Assembly (NCBI GenBank): GCA_048938855.1
Contig: JBHLLT010000001.1
Location: forward strand, 352,124-416,123
Origin: Promethearchaeota archaeon
Lineage (GTDB): Archaea; Asgardarchaeota; Lokiarchaeia; Sigyniarchaeales; SOKP01
DNA: 64,000 bases
Reading direction: 5' to 3'
Positions 6,718-14,065 of the stretch are shown here, piece after piece. Under the pieces are notes generated by a model. That model saw only the letters and a list, made by a program, of their open reading frames with translations. It had not been told where the DNA came from and searched no databases. The translations under genes and the position numbers were made by a program. Position 1 is the first letter of the stretch, and each line of letters begins with the position of its first letter.

Positions 6718-7560
6718 ATGGTAAAGTATAATATTAGAAAACCAACAGATAAAGAAATTTTAAAATGTATAAATGTACTTTATTCTGCTTTTGATAGACC
6801 TCTCCCAACAAAGATAAAAGTAGAAGAAAAAATATGGAAAGCTTTAATAGAATCAGAAATTGGCACATTCCTTATCTCTGAGGAAAATGGAAAACTTTTC
6901 GGTGTTGGAGGAGTATTTTTTTTCGGGAAAGTCAGTAGTTTTGGATATATGGCTGTATTACCAGAATACAGATGTAAAGGAATAGGAACTGAGATTTTTA
7001 AAAGTTTGTTGGAGATTGCTAATCAAATGAAATGTGAAACAAATTTTCTGTATGCTTCTAAATTAGGAAAACCAATCTATCAAAAATTTGGTTTTCAAGA
7101 AAGCTTTTATGCCACAATGTATCAATTATCAAAACAGAAACCAGAATTTCAAATTCATAATTATAGAGTTAAGGAATTGAAAAAGATTCCAAAATGGATA
7201 TTAAGTCTTGATAAGCAAGCAATAGGATATGATCGTGAAAGATATTTGACGTTTAGAGTCGAATTTGGAGCGAAAATCTTGGCTGTAGAAAATGTAGGGT
7301 TTGGTTTATTAGCAAATTCGCGTTTAGGTCCATTAATAGCAACAAATCAAATTGTTGCTCAACAGATAGTTAAGAAAAGTGTAAATTTAGGTGCTGATCA
7401 TATGATAGTTACGAACCACAACTATATTCCGAAACCATTGTTCAAATCAATAAATCTAGTAGAAGAAGAAAAGAATGCTAATGTTAAGATGGTTCGAGGA
7501 AAAAAACTCTCTGAAAAATTAAGTTTATTGTATGCTATTGCTACATATGCTAAAGGGTAA
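6718..7560 (+). CDS. GNAT family N-acetyltransferase (two-domain, YitH-like)
   Basis: Motif A VLPEYRCKGIGT, GKPIYQKFGF, C-terminal RLGPLIA. Confidence 0.85.
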   Translation: MVKYNIRKPTDKEILKCINVLYSAFDRPLPTKIKVEEKIWKALIESEIGTFLISEENGKLFGVGGVFFFGKVSSFGYMAVLPEYRCKGIGTEIFKSLLEIANQMKCETNFLYASKLGKPIYQKFGFQESFYATMYQLSKQKPEFQIHNYRVKELKKIPKWILSLDKQAIGYDRERYLTFRVEFGAKILAVENVGFGLLANSRLGPLIATNQIVAQQIVKKSVNLGADHMIVTNHNYIPKPLFKSINLVEEEKNANVKMVRGKKLSEKLSLLYAIATYAKG

Positions 7561-7563
7561 AAG

Positions 7564-8070
7564 TTAATTCTTTATTGATTTTGTTCTACGAATTCGAATT
7601 TTTTTTAATGAAAGTAAATACAAAATTCCTGCAATAAATTGTAAATAGATCGCGACATATGGCCAATAATAGTTGATCCCCCAAAAAGTTGGATACCCCC
7701 TTACAACAATATAGATAACTTGTAAGCCAATTATGAGAAAGAGAGGGGTAGCAATCATAAAAATCCCTCCAATGTAATAATACATTAATTTTAATTGCTG
7801 CTGCCTTTTTTCTTTTAATAATATGAAAAAGATTAAAAAACAACTTACGAAGATAAAAATTGAAGAAATTATACCTGGAATTAAAAATTCTAATTCCAAA
7901 TCAAAGGTAAATCCAATTTCACTTGAATTTAACCCGAAAAAGAGAGTAAGACCCCAAAACCAAAAGTTGTACATATAATTAGGGCTAATATGGAAAATTA
8001 CTGGAGTGAATAATGAAATAATACCAATCATTCCGGAAGATAATGAGATTTTATTATAAACCGATTTCAT
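7564..8070 (-). CDS. Hypothetical membrane protein (~4 TM)
   Basis: 168 aa, four hydrophobic segments, basic C-terminus. Confidence 0.65.
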   Translation of the reverse strand: MKSVYNKISLSSGMIGIISLFTPVIFHISPNYMYNFWFWGLTLFFGLNSSEIGFTFDLELEFLIPGIISSIFIFVSCFLIFFILLKEKRQQQLKLMYYYIGGIFMIATPLFLIIGLQVIYIVVRGYPTFWGINYYWPYVAIYLQFIAGILYLLSLKKIRIRRTKSIKN

Positions 8071-8196: not shown

Positions 8197-10179
8197 TTAA
8201 CCTATTTCAACGTCTATTTTCTTACGTTCTTTAAGTAAATCGTCTACTACAGAAGGATCTGCTAGGGTTGTGACATTTCCAATATCAGTACCGGCAGCAA
8301 TCGCTTTTAAGATTCTTCGCATTATCTTACCACTTCTCGTTTTAGGTAGAGCATCAGCAAATTGTATGACATCAGGTTGGAATACTGGGCCAATCTCATT
8401 TCTTACATGCATTCTTATTTCCTTAGCTAATTTAGCTGATTTTTCAACTCCTTGCATAAGAGTTACATAGGCCCAGATAGCTTGTCCCTTGATTTTATGA
8501 GGAAAAGGAGCGACAGCGGCTTCAGCTACTTGCGGATGACTCACGAGAGCAGACTCTACTTCCATTGTTCCTATTCTATGACCGGATACTTTAATAACAT
8601 CATCAAGTCTACCTAAAATCCAATAGTAGCCATCTTCATCACGTCTAGCACCATCTCCAGTATAATAACATCCAGGATAGCGTTCTAAATAAGTAGAAAT
8701 AAACCTCTCAGTATTGCCCCAAACATCTCTTAACATACCTGGCCAAGGTTGGCCCATTGCGAAATAACCTCCTTCATTGGGTTCGGTTATTACATCACCC
8801 TCTAAGTCAAAGATGACTGGCTTAATACCTAAGAATGGCATACAACAAGAACCAGGTTTAGTTGGTGTTGCTGTTGCAATAGGAGTCATAATAAAACCCC
8901 CTGTTTCTGTTTGCCAATAAGTATCTACTATTGGGCATTTTTCTTTTCCGACTATTCTATGATACCAGGTCCAAGCCTCAGGATTAATTGGTTCTCCAAC
9001 TGTTCCTAACACTTTTAAAGAACTAAGATCATGCTTATTTACTAACTCATCACCAAACCTCATTAAAGCCCTTATAGCTGTAGGGGCAGTATAAAAGTGT
9101 GTTACTTTATGATCTTCACAAATCTGCCAAAATCTATCATTATTAGGGTAAGTCGGAACCCCTTCATACATAAGGGTAGTTGCACCATTTGCCAAAGGTC
9201 CATAAACGATATAACTATGACCGGTAATCCATCCAATGTCTGCTGTACAATACCAGATATCTCCTTCATGGTAATTAAATACAATTCTATGGGAAAAGGA
9301 TGTGTAGAGAATATAGCCTGCTGTGGTGTGTTTTACACCTTTAGGTTTTCCCGTTGTTCCACTTGTGTATAAAATAAACAATGTATCCTCAGAATCCATG
9401 ACCTCAGGTTCACATTCTTCACTCATACCATCTATGAATTCATGATACCAGATATCTCTACTAGTATGAGGAACTTCATTTCCTGATCGTTTCACAACAA
9501 TAACATGTTCTATTGTTGGAACTTCATCAATTATTTGTACAACATCAGCCATTTTTGGATAATATTTTCCTGCTCTTACAGTTTCATCACTAGTAAATAA
9601 TAGTCTTGAGTCGGAGTCGTCAACTCTATCTTTCACAGCTTCTTTAGAAAATCCTCCAAATACAATTGAATGAATGACTCCAATCCGAGCACACGCTAAC
9701 ATAATTATTGCTAATTCTGGAATCATTGGTAACCATATTGTAACTCGATCTCCTTTTTTCAAGCCAAGTTTCCTCATCCCATTTGCGACTTTATTCACTT
9801 CCCTTAAAAGTTCATTATATGTATAGGTCTTTGCTTGACGAGGTTCATCAGCTTCCCATATAATAGCTAATTTATCTCCATTCCCTGCTTTCACATGTCG
9901 ATCTAAGCAATTAAATGCTACATTTAGTTTTCCACCAACAAACCATTTTCCGGGGAATAAATCTGTTTTTTCCCATACTTTTTCATATGGTTCAATCCAA
10001 TCTAGTGATTTTGCTTGTTCTCCCCAAAATCCTTCCATATCTTCAATAGATTGTTGATAAAGCTTTTTGTATTCTTCCGAGGAAATCCCTGTTTTTACAA
10101 ATTCGGGATTCAAGTCTTTAGGATTAAAAATGCGGTTCTCGGTTAAAATACTTTCCATTTTATTGTCTTCTTCAGACAT
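8197..10179 (-). CDS. acs: AMP-forming acetyl-CoA synthetase
   Basis: YTSGTTGKPKG, DTYWQTETG, SGHRIGT and PKTRSGKIMRR (A10 lysine) motifs. Confidence 0.96.
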   Translation of the reverse strand: MSEEDNKMESILTENRIFNPKDLNPEFVKTGISSEEYKKLYQQSIEDMEGFWGEQAKSLDWIEPYEKVWEKTDLFPGKWFVGGKLNVAFNCLDRHVKAGNGDKLAIIWEADEPRQAKTYTYNELLREVNKVANGMRKLGLKKGDRVTIWLPMIPELAIIMLACARIGVIHSIVFGGFSKEAVKDRVDDSDSRLLFTSDETVRAGKYYPKMADVVQIIDEVPTIEHVIVVKRSGNEVPHTSRDIWYHEFIDGMSEECEPEVMDSEDTLFILYTSGTTGKPKGVKHTTAGYILYTSFSHRIVFNYHEGDIWYCTADIGWITGHSYIVYGPLANGATTLMYEGVPTYPNNDRFWQICEDHKVTHFYTAPTAIRALMRFGDELVNKHDLSSLKVLGTVGEPINPEAWTWYHRIVGKEKCPIVDTYWQTETGGFIMTPIATATPTKPGSCCMPFLGIKPVIFDLEGDVITEPNEGGYFAMGQPWPGMLRDVWGNTERFISTYLERYPGCYYTGDGARRDEDGYYWILGRLDDVIKVSGHRIGTMEVESALVSHPQVAEAAVAPFPHKIKGQAIWAYVTLMQGVEKSAKLAKEIRMHVRNEIGPVFQPDVIQFADALPKTRSGKIMRRILKAIAAGTDIGNVTTLADPSVVDDLLKERKKIDVEIG

Positions 10180-10588
10180 ATTACTTCACATTATTAGTTT
10201 TTTTCGTATAAGATTATATTCATTTGATATTTAACTAAATTCTATAAAAATTTTAAAGATCTCTTTCCACCCTCATCAATTTTAAAGTTTTTGGTTTAAT
10301 ATAAACAAGAGGGAAACAATTGAGAATTATTTTGTATTGCTTTTAAACATTTTATTTATAGATCAATTAAGATGAGCCTTATTACATAGGATTTAATAAT
10401 CTAGATATTTGAAAAGTTAATTTTTTATTAGAGTGGTAAATTCTAAATTTGAGAGGAAGTATAATTTTTAAACCCATTTTATTTAAACTTTCAAAAACAA
10501 TATAATATTGTTATTTTTAATTGAAGCTTATATAATAAATAATATTTGAATAAAATAACAAAAAATTTTGAGGAAGTAGATCAATTTT

Positions 10589-12478
10589 ATGACATTTGAT
10601 TGGAGGGAACAGTGGAAAGATAAGGAAATCTCAGTATCAGAAGCAATAGAGAAAATAATACCCGGGAATCGAGTTTTTATTGATTCTGGATGTGCTGAAC
10701 CGCAATTGTTAACATCAGAATTAATCAAACACTCAGAAAAGTTAATTGATACTGAAATTCTTCATTTTTTAACAATTGGCCCTGAAAAATATTTTAAGGA
10801 TAAAGCTGAAGATCTTTTTAGACATAATGCTTTTTTCATAGGAAAGACCCTACGTGAGGAAATAAATAGAGGACAAGCAGATTATACACCGATATACGCT
10901 AGTGAAATTCCTTCTTTGTTTCAATCAGGTAGAAAACATATTGATGTAGCCCTTATCCAAGTTACTCCTCCTGATCCATATGGTTTTTGTTCCTTAGGAA
11001 TTAATGTTGATATTGCAAAACCAATAGCACAATCATCTTACCTTACTATTGCAGAAATTAATCCTCAAATGCCTCGAACTTTGGGAAATAGTTTTATTCA
11101 TATGAAAGAAATAGACTATTTTGTGTATAATGACACTCCTTTGCTACAATTTTATTTTGATGAACCAGATGAAATTGCACAAAGAATAGGAAGAAATTTG
11201 GCTAATTTAATTGAAAACAAATCAACCATTCACATAGGGTTCGGCGATCTTCCCAATGCGGCTTTAAAGTATTTAGAAGATAAAAAGGATCTTGGAATGC
11301 ATTCTCATTATATTACAGATAATGTAATACCACTTATTGAAGGAGGAGTATTAACATGTCGAAAGAAAAATTTTCATCCTGAAAAAATCATAACCAGTTT
11401 TGCTCTAGGAACTAAAAAATTATACAATTTCATACAAAATAATCCTTATATAGAATTTTTTCCTTCTGATTATGTCTGTAATCCAAAGTATATTGGCATG
11501 AATAAAAATATGGTCTCAATAAATTCCGCCCGACAGATTGATTTAACAGGGCAAGTAAATGCAGCAACCGAAGGTTATCGTTTCTATTCTGGATTAGGCG
11601 AGACTATTGATTTTATGAGGGGGGCTGCATTTTCTAAAGGAGGAAAGCCTATTATAATAATCCCTTCAACATCTAGAGATGGTAAAAAATCACGTATAGT
11701 ACCTCATTTAGATGAAGGTGCTGGAATATTATTGTCTCGTGGCGATGTTCATTATGTTGTAACTGAGTGGGGTGTAGCTTACCTTCATGGTAAAACTATT
11801 CGTGAAAGAGTTCTTGAATTGATTTGTATAGCACACCCAAAATTCCGACAAACACTTTTAGATGAAGCTAAGAAATTAAATTATATTTTTTCTGATCAAA
11901 TGCTTCCGTGCGATGAAGATGGTCGAATCTGTTTATATCCCTCGGAATATGAAACAATTTTTATAACAAAAGATAAAGAAAAAATAAATATTCGCCCTGT
12001 AAAAACTACAGATGAACAAGCATTAAAAGAATTGTATTATTCTTTAAATGAAAGAGATAGGTATTTAAGATTTTTCGAATTGAGGAAGGAATTCACTCAT
12101 TCAAAAACTCAGAGTGAAGTAAATATTGATTATGACAATGTATTTTCATTAGGAGCATTTATTGGGGAAATAGGTAAAGAAGAAATGATAGGAAGCGCTA
12201 CTTATTATTTAAATCCTGAAATGAATATGGCAGAGTATAGTTTTTTGGTTAGAGAAGATTATAGGGGAAAAGGTGTTGGGACTTTTTTATACCAACATAT
12301 TATTATTATCGCCAAGGAGAAAGGTATAAAGGGATTCTATGGGAACATCCACATTCAAAATAAAGAAACAATTCGTGTTATTCATAAGGGAGGTTATACT
12401 AAGATAACTCCTCCAGATATCGGAGAAAAAGAATTGTTTTACAGAGTCTTCTTTGATAAAGAGGATGCTATTAAATAA
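10589..12478 (+). CDS. Acetyl-CoA hydrolase/4-hydroxybutyrate CoA-transferase-like domain fused to a Pat-type GNAT acetyltransferase
   Basis: N-terminal ~430 aa: DVALIQV, MPRT, DLTGQV, VVTEWG, IAHPKFR. C-terminal GNAT: YLRFF, AEYSFLV, DYRGKGVG. Confidence 0.9.
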   Translation: MTFDWREQWKDKEISVSEAIEKIIPGNRVFIDSGCAEPQLLTSELIKHSEKLIDTEILHFLTIGPEKYFKDKAEDLFRHNAFFIGKTLREEINRGQADYTPIYASEIPSLFQSGRKHIDVALIQVTPPDPYGFCSLGINVDIAKPIAQSSYLTIAEINPQMPRTLGNSFIHMKEIDYFVYNDTPLLQFYFDEPDEIAQRIGRNLANLIENKSTIHIGFGDLPNAALKYLEDKKDLGMHSHYITDNVIPLIEGGVLTCRKKNFHPEKIITSFALGTKKLYNFIQNNPYIEFFPSDYVCNPKYIGMNKNMVSINSARQIDLTGQVNAATEGYRFYSGLGETIDFMRGAAFSKGGKPIIIIPSTSRDGKKSRIVPHLDEGAGILLSRGDVHYVVTEWGVAYLHGKTIRERVLELICIAHPKFRQTLLDEAKKLNYIFSDQMLPCDEDGRICLYPSEYETIFITKDKEKINIRPVKTTDEQALKELYYSLNERDRYLRFFELRKEFTHSKTQSEVNIDYDNVFSLGAFIGEIGKEEMIGSATYYLNPEMNMAEYSFLVREDYRGKGVGTFLYQHIIIIAKEKGIKGFYGNIHIQNKETIRVIHKGGYTKITPPDIGEKELFYRVFFDKEDAIK

Positions 12479-12527: not shown

Positions 12528-13322
12528 ATGAGATTTAAATTTACAGATTTTCATGTTCACACCAGACCATGGAGTACAGATGTAGCACAAGATGGCCCTA
12601 CTTTTGAAGATTATATCGAAGTAGCACAAGAGCATCAAATTAATGTCTGTTTCCTAAACCATTATGAACTTTATTATGTAGAGAACGACAAGACTAATCC
12701 ATTCTATAATGGAAAAATTAATAACTATCTTGAAGAGATCGATGTATTAAAAGAGACCTATGATTTCATACTCAGTGGATTAGAAGTTGAATATTATGAG
12801 AATAAGGAACTTAAGATAATTGAATTTATGGATGATTACAGTAAAGAATTTGATTTTATTGGGGGTTCTATTCATGAATGGATAATTGGATATCCTATTA
12901 CCACAAAATCAGGATTAGAAAGACTACTTGAAAAAATACCAATGAAAAAAATTATAGATGACTATTTTAACATAAGTACAAAAATGATTAATTCCCAAAT
13001 TTTCAAAAATATATGCCATCTTGACACTATCTTTCGCTATATTAATAATAATGAGTTCGTACCCGAAAATAATTGTGATGTATCTGATAATCGAATATTA
13101 GAATTAGGTAGATTATGCATAAAAAACAATCTACGAGTAGAAATGAATTTATCGGGATTACGATTTCCAATAAAAAGATCATTTCCTTCTATGGATGTGA
13201 TAAAAACATTAAAAAAAGAAGGGGGTAATATATTTGTGGGATCTGATTCACATTCTTTAGATTATTTTAAAGAACAAATCCCTAAAGTAATAGAAGCTTA
13301 TAGAGTAATAAATGCACATTAA
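12528..13322 (+). CDS. PHP-domain phosphatase (histidinol-phosphatase HisJ-like)
   Basis: DFHVHT, GLEVEY, GSIH, CHLD and GSDSH metal-binding motifs. Confidence 0.85.
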   Translation: MRFKFTDFHVHTRPWSTDVAQDGPTFEDYIEVAQEHQINVCFLNHYELYYVENDKTNPFYNGKINNYLEEIDVLKETYDFILSGLEVEYYENKELKIIEFMDDYSKEFDFIGGSIHEWIIGYPITTKSGLERLLEKIPMKKIIDDYFNISTKMINSQIFKNICHLDTIFRYINNNEFVPENNCDVSDNRILELGRLCIKNNLRVEMNLSGLRFPIKRSFPSMDVIKTLKKEGGNIFVGSDSHSLDYFKEQIPKVIEAYRVINAH

Positions 13323-13345: not shown

Positions 13346-14065
13346 ATGGAATTTAAAGAATTTTCAAATAAAATTGATAAATGGGATCAAAAGATTATTT
13401 TAAAATATAATGGATTTGGTGGTAGACCATTCACTATTTTTCTTAGAATACTTTCCTTTTTTGGTCGAGAAACTCTGTGGCTTTTGTTAATCGCTTTTTA
13501 TCTATTTGTTTGGTATGATCCATTTTTATTATCTTATATATCTGCTACATTTCTTACAGGATTATTTTTAATTTTAATCATAAAATATTTAGTAAAAAGG
13601 AAAAGACCATTTGAAAGATTTGAAGAAGGAAAAATAGTGGTTTTAGAGGGAAAACCTACCTCGAGAAGCTTTCCTTCATGGCATTCTTATAATGTTACGT
13701 CACAGGGTCTATTGTTTAGCCTAATTTTTATTAAATCACCAATTATTAGTATTTTACTTCTCATACTTGTGGTGGTAGTTTCTTTTTCAAGAATTCAACT
13801 TGGTGTTCATTATCCTTCTGATGTCATATTTGGTTGCATTTTTGGTATAGCAGGATTTTTTATATCAATATTTTTAATCAGTCCTCTTATATTAAAACTA
13901 TTAACCTATCTAGAACAGTTTATACCATTTGAAATTCAATATCAAGGAATAAACTCATTATTATTCAGTAACATATGGTATATGCTACTCTCGATTAGTG
14001 TGTTTCTTGCGATTCTTGTTCTAAGTTTATATAAAAAAATTTTAGGATTATTTAAGAAATATTAG
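13346..14065 (+). CDS. PAP2-family membrane phosphatase
   Basis: KxxxxRxRP, SFPSWH and SRIQLGVHYPSDV motifs. Confidence 0.92.
   Translation: MEFKEFSNKIDKWDQKIILKYNGFGGRPFTIFLRILSFFGRETLWLLLIAFYLFVWYDPFLLSYISATFLTGLFLILIIKYLVKRKRPFERFEEGKIVVLEGKPTSRSFPSWHSYNVTSQGLLFSLIFIKSPIISILLLILVVVVSFSRIQLGVHYPSDVIFGCIFGIAGFFISIFLISPLILKLLTYLEQFIPFEIQYQGINSLLFSNIWYMLLSISVFLAILVLSLYKKILGLFKKY

Follow-up and report, generated by a model that had tools for sequence, protein, structure and literature searches.

Control of acetyl-CoA synthetase (Acs) by lysine acetylation is textbook post-translational regulation in bacterial metabolism. Here we describe a 64,000-nucleotide (nt) stretch of DNA from a Promethearchaeota archaeon (GCA_048938855.1, contig JBHLLT010000001.1, forward strand 352,124-416,123; below, the window, whose own coordinates are used throughout), in which an acs gene lies head-to-head with a gene for a protein of 629 amino acids (aa) that fuses a class I CoA-transferase fold to a GNAT acetyltransferase. 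Its nearest described counterparts in overall plan are the type I acetyltransferases Salmonella enterica Pat and E. coli PatZ/YfiQ (9IT0/9ISQ, with the CobB sirtuin). They have the same Pat-type C-terminal GNAT, with its catalytic Glu, P-loop and Y-x-RFF motif, preceded likewise by a large N-terminal domain that comes from a CoA-thioester enzyme and lacks the catalytic residue; Acs, through its PX4GK lysine, is their paradigm substrate. However, the regulatory domain of PatZ is a homolog of ADP-forming acyl-CoA synthetases (about 700 aa, tetrameric), whereas the fusion has the unrelated class I CoA-transferase fold (about 430 aa). Moreover, patZ is not normally head-to-head with acs, unlike the fusion gene, and the fusion is known here from sequence alone.

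The acsA/acuABC locus of Bacillus subtilis offers a second comparison. According to two reports (PMC13121692, PMC11255334), a GNAT that inactivates Acs, AcuA, is likewise encoded divergently from acs. AcuA is a single-domain protein that forms a complex with AcsA, while sensing is provided in trans by AcuB and deacetylation by the operon-encoded AcuC. In the window, by contrast, the candidate sensor is part of the GNAT polypeptide itself, and the locus has no deacetylase gene. In the type III Pats (MtPat and MsPat with cAMP, the actinobacterial ACT-GNAT proteins, MxKat with NADP+), the sensors are classical small-molecule-binding domains and not a CoA-transferase pseudoenzyme. Finally, AbfT of C. 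aminobutyricum (3GK7), RipA of Y. pestis and AarC of A. aceti have the fold of the N-terminal domain of the fusion (TM 0.93-0.95), but in the fusion the nucleophilic Glu is missing, as are the internal oxyanion-hole Asn and the Gly-Gln pair of the external loop, and a GNAT is added at the C-terminus. A 2021 review and a 2025 study of PatZ recognise five types of lysine acetyltransferases (KATs; I-V), none of which has a CoA-transferase domain (PMC8556138, PMC12184503), and we found no paper on the CoA-transferase/GNAT architecture in the literature. An earlier reading of the window from its letters (below, the original prediction) had proposed a candidate new Acs-regulating system. The architecture does fall outside the published KAT types, but it is not new to databases, where it already has a PGAP name and occurs in more than 20 phyla.

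The features on which the argument depends are the following.

8197-10179, minus strand: acs, AMP-forming acetyl-CoA synthetase, 660 aa (NF001208, TIGR02188, Pfam)
8326-8328, minus strand: codon of Lys618 in PKTRSGK (PX4GK), the A10 catalytic lysine (from the translation)
10180-10588, no strand: divergent intergenic region of 409 bp between acs and the fusion gene
10589-12478, plus strand: fusion gene, 629 aa (P0001; open reading frame with PF02550, PF13336 and PF00583)
10589-11878, plus strand: N-terminal CoA-transferase-type domain of the fusion, residues 1-430 (PF02550 2e-30, PF13336 2e-59)
11231-11233, plus strand: codon of His215, in place of the Gln of TLQxGIG (alignments to 4-hydroxybutyrate CoA-transferases)
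11306-11308, plus strand: codon of His240, in place of the catalytic Glu (phmmer alignments)
11477-11479, plus strand: codon of Cys297, in place of the Asn of DYVN(D)P (comparison of orthologs with intact domains)
11600-11605, plus strand: codons of Glu338-Thr339, in place of the Gly-Gln of the GxGGQxDF loop (same comparison)
11879-12475, plus strand: linker and Pat-type GNAT domain, residues 431-629 (PF00583 3e-11, phmmer)
12233-12235, plus strand: codon of Glu549 in AEYSFLV (aligned with E. coli PatZ E809)

Our preferred reading, probable though with much room for doubt, makes the 629-aa fusion product a lysine acetyltransferase of the Pat type, aimed at Acs and regulated through a module with the class I CoA-transferase fold that has lost canonical CoA transfer. 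The two genes are divergent as originally predicted, with 409 bp between the open reading frames. The acs product exceeds the cut-offs of both NF001208 (983 bits) and TIGR02188 (950 bits, cut-off 725) and has the ACAS_N, AMP-binding and AMP-binding_C domains of Pfam. A search of the organism's own genome (assembly of 3.95 Mb, 97% complete) gave no second acs copy above 30% identity; the window acs is the sole true acs of a genome with about 15 further AMP-forming ligases. The A10 lysine predicted for this Acs is in place (K618 of PKTRSGK, nt 8326-8328), and in other organisms this A10/PX4GK lysine is the one acetylated by Pat enzymes (PMC8556138, PMC12184503).

The C-terminal GNAT had been judged intact, and the closer comparison agrees. 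The domain (residues ~466-603; PF00583, 3e-11) contains RYLRFF (491-496), AEYSFLV with Glu549, and RGKGVG (559-564), which fits the acetyl-CoA P-loop pattern R/Q-x-x-G-x-G/A. In phmmer searches against solved structures, residues 431-629 matched best the GNAT of S. lividans PatA (SlPatA, 4NXY, 3e-15), and also E. coli PatZ (9IT0, residues 701-863, 4e-14), Sulfolobus Pat (SsPat, 3F8K, 6e-8) and M. tuberculosis Pat (MtPat, 4ORF, 7e-6). A small-molecule GNAT, a phosphinothricin acetyltransferase-like protein, reached 3e-6, far weaker than the 3e-15 of PatA; protein acetyltransferases, rather than small-molecule GNATs, are the closest solved relatives of this domain. A808-E809-F810 of PatZ aligns on A548-E549-Y550, which puts Glu549 on the proposed catalytic residue of PatZ, E809 (PMC12184503). 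The equivalent of Glu549 is invariant in 9 diverse Asgard fusions and kept in 75 of 80 distant ones. The top NCBIfam match is the mycobacterial Pat model NF058543, at 45.7 bits against a cut-off of 460, so the fusion is not a member of that family. The genome has just two Pat-type GNATs, and both are CoA-transferase fusions.

Residues 1-430, on the other hand, match only PF02550 and PF13336 in Pfam, and CoA-transferases in Foldseek; the homology to ADP/NDP-forming acyl-CoA synthetases that defines type I and II Pats is absent. These two families, the acetyl-CoA hydrolase/transferase N and C domains, cover residues 11-427 and together give the two-lobed CoA-transferase fold. Residues 4-436 align by phmmer with solved 4-hydroxybutyrate CoA-transferases (best E 5e-117, 9vag), and identity to class I CoA-transferases is 37-41% over about 430 residues. 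No curated CoA-transferase equivalog cut-off is exceeded: TIGR03948 (butyryl-CoA:acetate CoA-transferase) gives 252 bits against 674.8, and other models score far lower. An AF2 model of the fusion (mean pLDDT 91.3, pTM 0.88) has CoA-transferases as its top Foldseek matches (TM 0.93-0.95 to 3gk7/2oas) and is consistent with a fixed arrangement of the two domains.

In the phmmer alignments DLGMHSHY sits over DLGVHTEM, so that the catalytic Glu is His240 here, and SGLGETIDF sits over SGFGGQLDF. Both the Glu-to-His change at nt 11306-11308 and the altered SGxGGQxDF loop had been read from the translation, and both are exact in the alignments to solved enzymes. To see how far the change extends in the family, 44 orthologs of the window fusion (type A) were compared with 68 homologous domains with intact sites, which were selected for Glu240 and for Gly-Gln at 338-339 and are therefore 100% conserved there by selection. 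Of the 83 positions conserved in at least 85% of the intact set, type A retains 78. Only five differ: Q215H (Q in 85% of intact domains, H in 44/44 type A), E240H/Y (E in 68/68; H in 41 and Y in 3 of type A, so that no ortholog has the Glu of (D/N)LG(I/V)H(S/T)E), N297C (N in 97%; C in 44/44), G338E/D (G in 100%; E in 36 and D in 8) and Q339T (Q in 100%; T in 42/44). In the final alignment, 43 of 43 type-A orthologs have H-H/Y-C-E/D at 215/240/297/338, with T339 in all but two. The oxyanion-hole residues are among those lost, the loop reading G-E-T for G-G-Q and Cys297 standing for Asn. Between genomes, the identity of the N-terminal domain is 76-90% in type A and 77-89% in the intact paralog (ranges that leave out the G104 pair, a domain-split artefact). 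By these measures the domain shows no decay: it is under strong constraint, as well conserved as that of the intact paralog, with the fold and most of the cleft retained and the catalytic apparatus exchanged as a set. The degenerate, dead domain that had been proposed is thus borne out as far as the nucleophile is gone from a fold that is still under constraint. It is not a matter of the Glu alone, however, but of a concerted and fixed replacement of five positions.

The AarC equivalents of the changed residues, as placed by motif spacing and phmmer aligned ranges, are Gln267, Glu294, Asn347 and Gly388/389. In AarC, Asn347 is the internal and Gly388 the external oxyanion hole, and all of the equivalents lie within ~4 Å of the CoA sulfur/acyl position (PMC4876117). 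For the type-A domain we find a pseudoenzyme best supported, one whose rebuilt pocket is conserved and would most simply bind CoA or acyl-CoA.

The same residues could also mean that the site is rewired and not dead. The carboxylate would have moved from 240 to 338, or Cys297 and a His would form a new nucleophile pair, and transferase or Ach1-like hydrolase turnover would persist in a bifunctional overflow device that drains acetyl-CoA and acetylates Acs. The replacements have gone to fixation and introduce reactive side chains (H, H/Y, C and E/D in 44/44, T in 42/44), and their AarC equivalents stand next to the CoA sulfur. Glu-intact fusions that are also linked to acs (see below) may well be catalytic. 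A quick maximum-likelihood tree of 90 sequences implies at least 12 losses of Glu240 and three origins of an acid at 338 (in type A together with its sister P0123, in P0142 and in P0188); every row with such an acid lacks Glu240 (13 rows, versus none of the 61 that have Glu240). With only three events this covariation is not significant, and the pattern keeps the idea of a relocated carboxylate at 338 alive without establishing it. On the other hand, the external oxyanion hole depends on the backbone of a Gly that is strictly conserved throughout the superfamily (PMC4876117); in type A a Glu or Asp has taken its place. At position 240 both His and Tyr are tolerated, as is Phe in P0123. The other Glu-less fusions carry residue sets unrelated to this one, a pattern more in keeping with lost function than with a single new mechanism. 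We therefore regard a rewired catalyst as unlikely, though it deserves to be kept in view.

A related possibility, to which we give a small chance, is that His215, His240, Cys297 and Glu(Asp)338 form a new metal- or thiol-based site that tells CoA-SH from acyl-CoA, or that supports a new acyl-transfer chemistry. Discrimination might then proceed by thiolate coordination or by a mixed disulfide between Cys297 and CoA. The placement of the four residues at the CoA sulfur is taken from class I CoA-transferases. If such a site existed, acetylation of Acs would be gated by the CoA/acyl-CoA or redox state, and the fusion would represent a sixth, mechanistically distinct class of regulated KAT, found in the closest archaeal relatives of eukaryotes.

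The N-terminal domain might also be merely a scaffold, for dimerisation or for docking of Acs, without ligand sensing; control, if any, would then come from the affinity of the GNAT for acetyl-CoA and from transcription in the shared intergenic region. 4-Hydroxybutyrate CoA-transferases are oligomeric. In PatZ, too, oligomerisation is driven by the regulatory domain, which helps to form the substrate pocket as well (PMC12184503). Among fusions at large, the pentad at the five positions is highly variable, as expected if the chemistry of the cleft is irrelevant: the Glu is kept in 33 of 49 fusion representatives versus 42 of 57 stand-alone proteins, and the full pentad QENGQ in 13 of 49 versus 32 of 57, a difference which weakly suggests that fusions as a class relaxed the nucleophile. 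In type A, however, the pentad is not drifting but fixed across 8 genera, and the 78 other conserved positions are kept, those of the rest of the cleft included. This argues that the pocket is still used, and makes a pure scaffold quite unlikely in our judgement. The CoA-transferase family also includes a stand-alone subfamily of ~420-440 aa with Gly for the catalytic Glu (P0212, P0223, P0234, P0239, P0241, P0245, P0252, P0259, P0266, P0269). Most of its members have His for the Asn as well (pentad QGHGQ and variants), and the nucleophile is gone there without any GNAT.

Gene order and phyletic pattern tie the fusion to acs. Among 301 genomes of the Asgard phylum surveyed, 173 have a match to the fusion. 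In the window's own family (f1) 63 of 68 genomes match, usually with a type-A protein (70-92% identity) and a second one, type B (~50%); fusions at 40-50% identity occur in families f2, f9, f18, f20 and f24. In the phylogenetic tree, type A forms a clade (SH-aLRT 100) with the metagenomic sequence P0123 as sister. It belongs to a larger supported group (98) that also contains type B and the f2 proteins; the proteins of family f9 form a clade of their own. This nesting implies that type A originated through a duplication within this order, after which its site was rebuilt. The type-B paralog of the window organism (C49:262867-264672, 51% identical to the window fusion) keeps DLGVHSEV and SGIGGQVDF and has HhH-GPD and TatD genes as neighbours, not acs. 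The same genome has a stand-alone CoA-transferase of 431 aa with an intact site.

Within f1, the rebuilt type-A gene is head-to-head with acs in 40 of 41 informative loci from 8 genera, with gaps of 0.2-5.8 kb. The remaining locus has no acs within 7 kb, and three more, with too little flank to judge, were not counted. In some genera unrelated genes (DUF4386, a ferredoxin-like protein, a CAAX protease and others; 2-6 kb) are inserted between the two. Recurrence of the divergent pair in 40 of 41 orthologous loci argues that the arrangement is not due to chance. In family f9, where the Glu is kept (DLGIHTEM, SGIGGQVDF), acs is divergent and 1-3 kb upstream in all 16 informative loci. Between fusion and acs lies a SatP/YaaH acetate permease, or an MFS transporter with ARPP-1, and on the other side a H+-pyrophosphatase. 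The single f18 locus, also with an intact site, has a convergent acs ~100 nt away. In two f9 loci (L052:1995-10880, L050:3538-12780) the order H+-pyrophosphatase, fusion, transporter, acs has the appearance of an acetate-utilisation island. One f9 genus has two tandem fusion genes beside acs (L110:1226-5025, L118:7004-10836), 46% and 43% identical to the window protein, which represent an independent duplication of the fusion.

The phyletic pattern points the same way. With acs called at E<=1e-150, it is present in 11 Asgard families; 6 of these 11 have full-length fusions, against none of the 19 acs-less families (Fisher p = 0.0008, descriptive only, the families not being independent). Matches in f3 and f21 are weak (E ~1e-25; those in f21 are GNAT-only open reading frames) and were not counted as full-length fusions. 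The fusion is thus nested within acs-bearing lineages, and in f1 the two are also missing together: four genomes of genus g2 (89-100% complete) lack both acs and fusion, and the sole g4 genome without the fusion has no true acs either. Several Asgard acs matches contain one or two in-frame TAG/TAA stops or are 10-20 residues longer than expected (G144:C2:88609-90639, G216:C51:53539-55548, G138, G273, G282).

The original prediction had pointed out that similar fusions exist in bacteria, and they are common there. At least 80 fusion clusters at 50% identity were found among the top 150 matches in a representative library, some of them 960-1013 aa long. At E<=1e-30 this library gives 1,737 matches, stand-alone CoA-transferases among them. 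The ESM Atlas has many fusion clusters, mostly bacterial, one of which bears the automatic PGAP-type name 'bifunctional acetyl-CoA hydrolase/transferase family protein/GNAT family N-acetyltransferase'. When one genome per species was scanned with a pattern built from 7 sequences, 80 full-length fusions came up in more than 20 phyla, including Planctomycetota, Chloroflexota, Myxococcota, Thermodesulfobacteriota, Verrucomicrobiota and Fibrobacterota, and among archaea Thermoplasmatota, Methanobacteriota, Thermoproteota, Thor- and Hod-archaeota. Because that pattern includes an intact H-T-E motif, the sample favours Glu-intact forms and allows no comparison of linkage between intact and degenerate ones. 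Of the 80 loci, 13 have an acs gene (at least 49% identity) no more than 8 kb away, in varied orientation; they come from Planctomycetota, Chloroflexota, Armatimonadota, Actinomycetota, Kiritimatiellota, Thermoplasmatota and others; by our own estimate, made for a 16-kb window in a genome of 3-6 Mb with 1-2 acs genes and with no empirical control, chance would give less than 1%. The pentad is EENGQ in 8 of these 13 loci, as in family f9. Some fusions are longer, 955-1067 aa, with an extra N- or C-terminal region of ~330-400 aa (P0126; P0127, which is RJO65015.1 from Myxococcales; P0160; P0173; P0200).

These data bear on whether Acs is the target at all. The GNAT could act on another acyl-CoA ligase, a chromatin protein or a small molecule, and the proximity of acs would then reflect shared acetate/acetyl-CoA metabolism or inherited synteny. 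The ~15 other AMP-forming ligases of the genome would offer candidates, most distant fusions are not linked to acs, and Pat enzymes are multi-substrate (PMC12184503). Nevertheless, linkage to acs recurs in separately branching lineages and phyla, with varied orientations and spacings. The nesting of the fusion in acs-bearing lineages and the joint absence in genus g2 also speak against another target, as does a similarity to Pat GNATs far above that to small-molecule GNATs (3e-15 vs 3e-6). We consider a target other than Acs improbable. Most likely, the fusion acts on Acs and switches it off by lysine acetylation. Acetylation of the PX4GK lysine by the fusion is suggested by the motif in the adjoining Acs, together with linkage and phyletic pattern.

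One expectation attached to the original prediction, that loss of the Glu should co-occur with linkage to acs, fails. Glu-intact fusions are linked in f9 (16/16), in f18 and in 13 of the 80 loci from many phyla, so that Glu loss does not define the linkage.

Several observations weigh against a sensor pseudoenzyme directed at Acs. First, the association with acs does not require a dead domain, for Glu-intact fusions show it too, and these forms may be true bifunctional enzymes. Second, linkage is absent from many relatives: type B of f1 with its intact site (0/12 within 6 kb), the Glu-keeping fusions of f2 (0/3) and f24 (0/4), and 67 of 80 fusions of the broad sample (within 8 kb). The one f20 locus, with an altered site, is also unlinked. 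Third, linkage in f1 is partly inherited synteny, since a fusion-PHP-PAP2-Arf block is conserved too, and the 40 type-A loci are therefore not independent events. Fourth, five acs-bearing Asgard families have no fusion, so that the dependence of fusion on acs runs one way. Fifth, the fixed His/His/Cys/acid set could mean new chemistry rather than mere binding. Finally, the acs/fusion locus has no deacetylase gene.

If the fusion is nevertheless an Acs-directed acetyltransferase with a sensor domain, its action might be pictured as follows. The N-terminal domain would still bind CoA or acyl-CoA in the old cleft, now lined by His215, His240, Cys297 and Glu338, and its ligand state would be relayed to the tightly packed GNAT domain, as in PatZ. 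There is precedent for such an arrangement: in type I/II Pats, dead CoA-ligase domains serve as acetyl-CoA sensors (PMC8556138, PMC12184503), and binding of acetyl-CoA to the dead ADP-forming synthetase domain activates the GNAT of PatZ (PMC12184503). The GNAT, with Glu549 as general base and RGKGVG as P-loop, would acetylate Lys618 of the divergently encoded Acs, so that adenylation would be blocked at high acetyl-CoA or low free CoA. One of the genomic sirtuins would remove the acetyl group. Three sirtuin (SIR2) loci above the cut-off are present in the genome, as a reversible lysine acylation system would need, and none of them is in the window. One sirtuin gene adjoins the gene of an AMP-forming acyl-CoA ligase (26% identical to Acs; G000:C49:375255-378367, L005/L078), which suggests that further ligases of the organism are reversibly acylated too. 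At a distance of ~110 kb from this pair, contig C49 also carries the fusion paralog with the intact site.

Downstream of the fusion gene, two co-oriented genes follow at gaps of 49 nt and 23 nt.

12528-13322, plus strand: HisJ-like PHP phosphoesterase (TIGR01856, 87.5 bits, just under the 90.2 cut-off)
13346-14065, plus strand: PAP2 phosphatase (PF01569)

The order fusion-PHP-PAP2 was found again in most of 20 orthologous loci. As it is conserved across the family, the three genes may form one operon, and PHP and PAP2 might conceivably belong to the acs/fusion system. Other genes in the window encode Arf/Rag-like GTPases, HEAT-repeat proteins and TFIIB (Pfam), and close homologs of the fusion bear the labels Loki-, Prometh- and Hod-archaeota. 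On the far side, downstream of acs, are a second GNAT of 280 aa (6718-7560, plus strand; Acetyltransf_7/1 and a C-terminal Acetyltransf_18) and an open reading frame of 168 aa (7564-8070, minus strand) with no Pfam or NCBIfam match. Neither was seen at the 20 orthologous loci checked in other genomes.

Alignment of 16 orthologous intergenic regions revealed two conserved blocks between acs and the fusion gene, one at ~10342-10350 (TTTAAACAT) and one at ~10477-10508 (TTTATTTAAACTTTCAAAAACAATATAATA), ~80 nt before the fusion ATG. Their conservation may point to a role as promoter elements. In the window they are separated by a lineage-specific insertion of ~130 nt (10350-10477), flanked by repeated CATTTTATTTA; most orthologs lack it, and TTTAAACAT and TTTATTTATAATTTCAAAAACA are contiguous there. 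L017 carries the same insertion and L013 a different one at the same spot. This may represent a small mobile insertion or a hotspot.

The fusion family would add a CoA-transferase-derived regulatory class to the recognised acetyltransferase architectures. It is widespread, being found in more than 20 bacterial and archaeal phyla and in most genomes of several Asgard families. With Glu-intact members, variously degenerate ones and one clade with a fixed five-residue rebuild, it provides a natural series for the evolution of a sensor from an enzyme. For Asgard physiology it points to regulated activation of acetate, in organisms where acetate and acyl-CoA metabolism is central to models of syntrophy.

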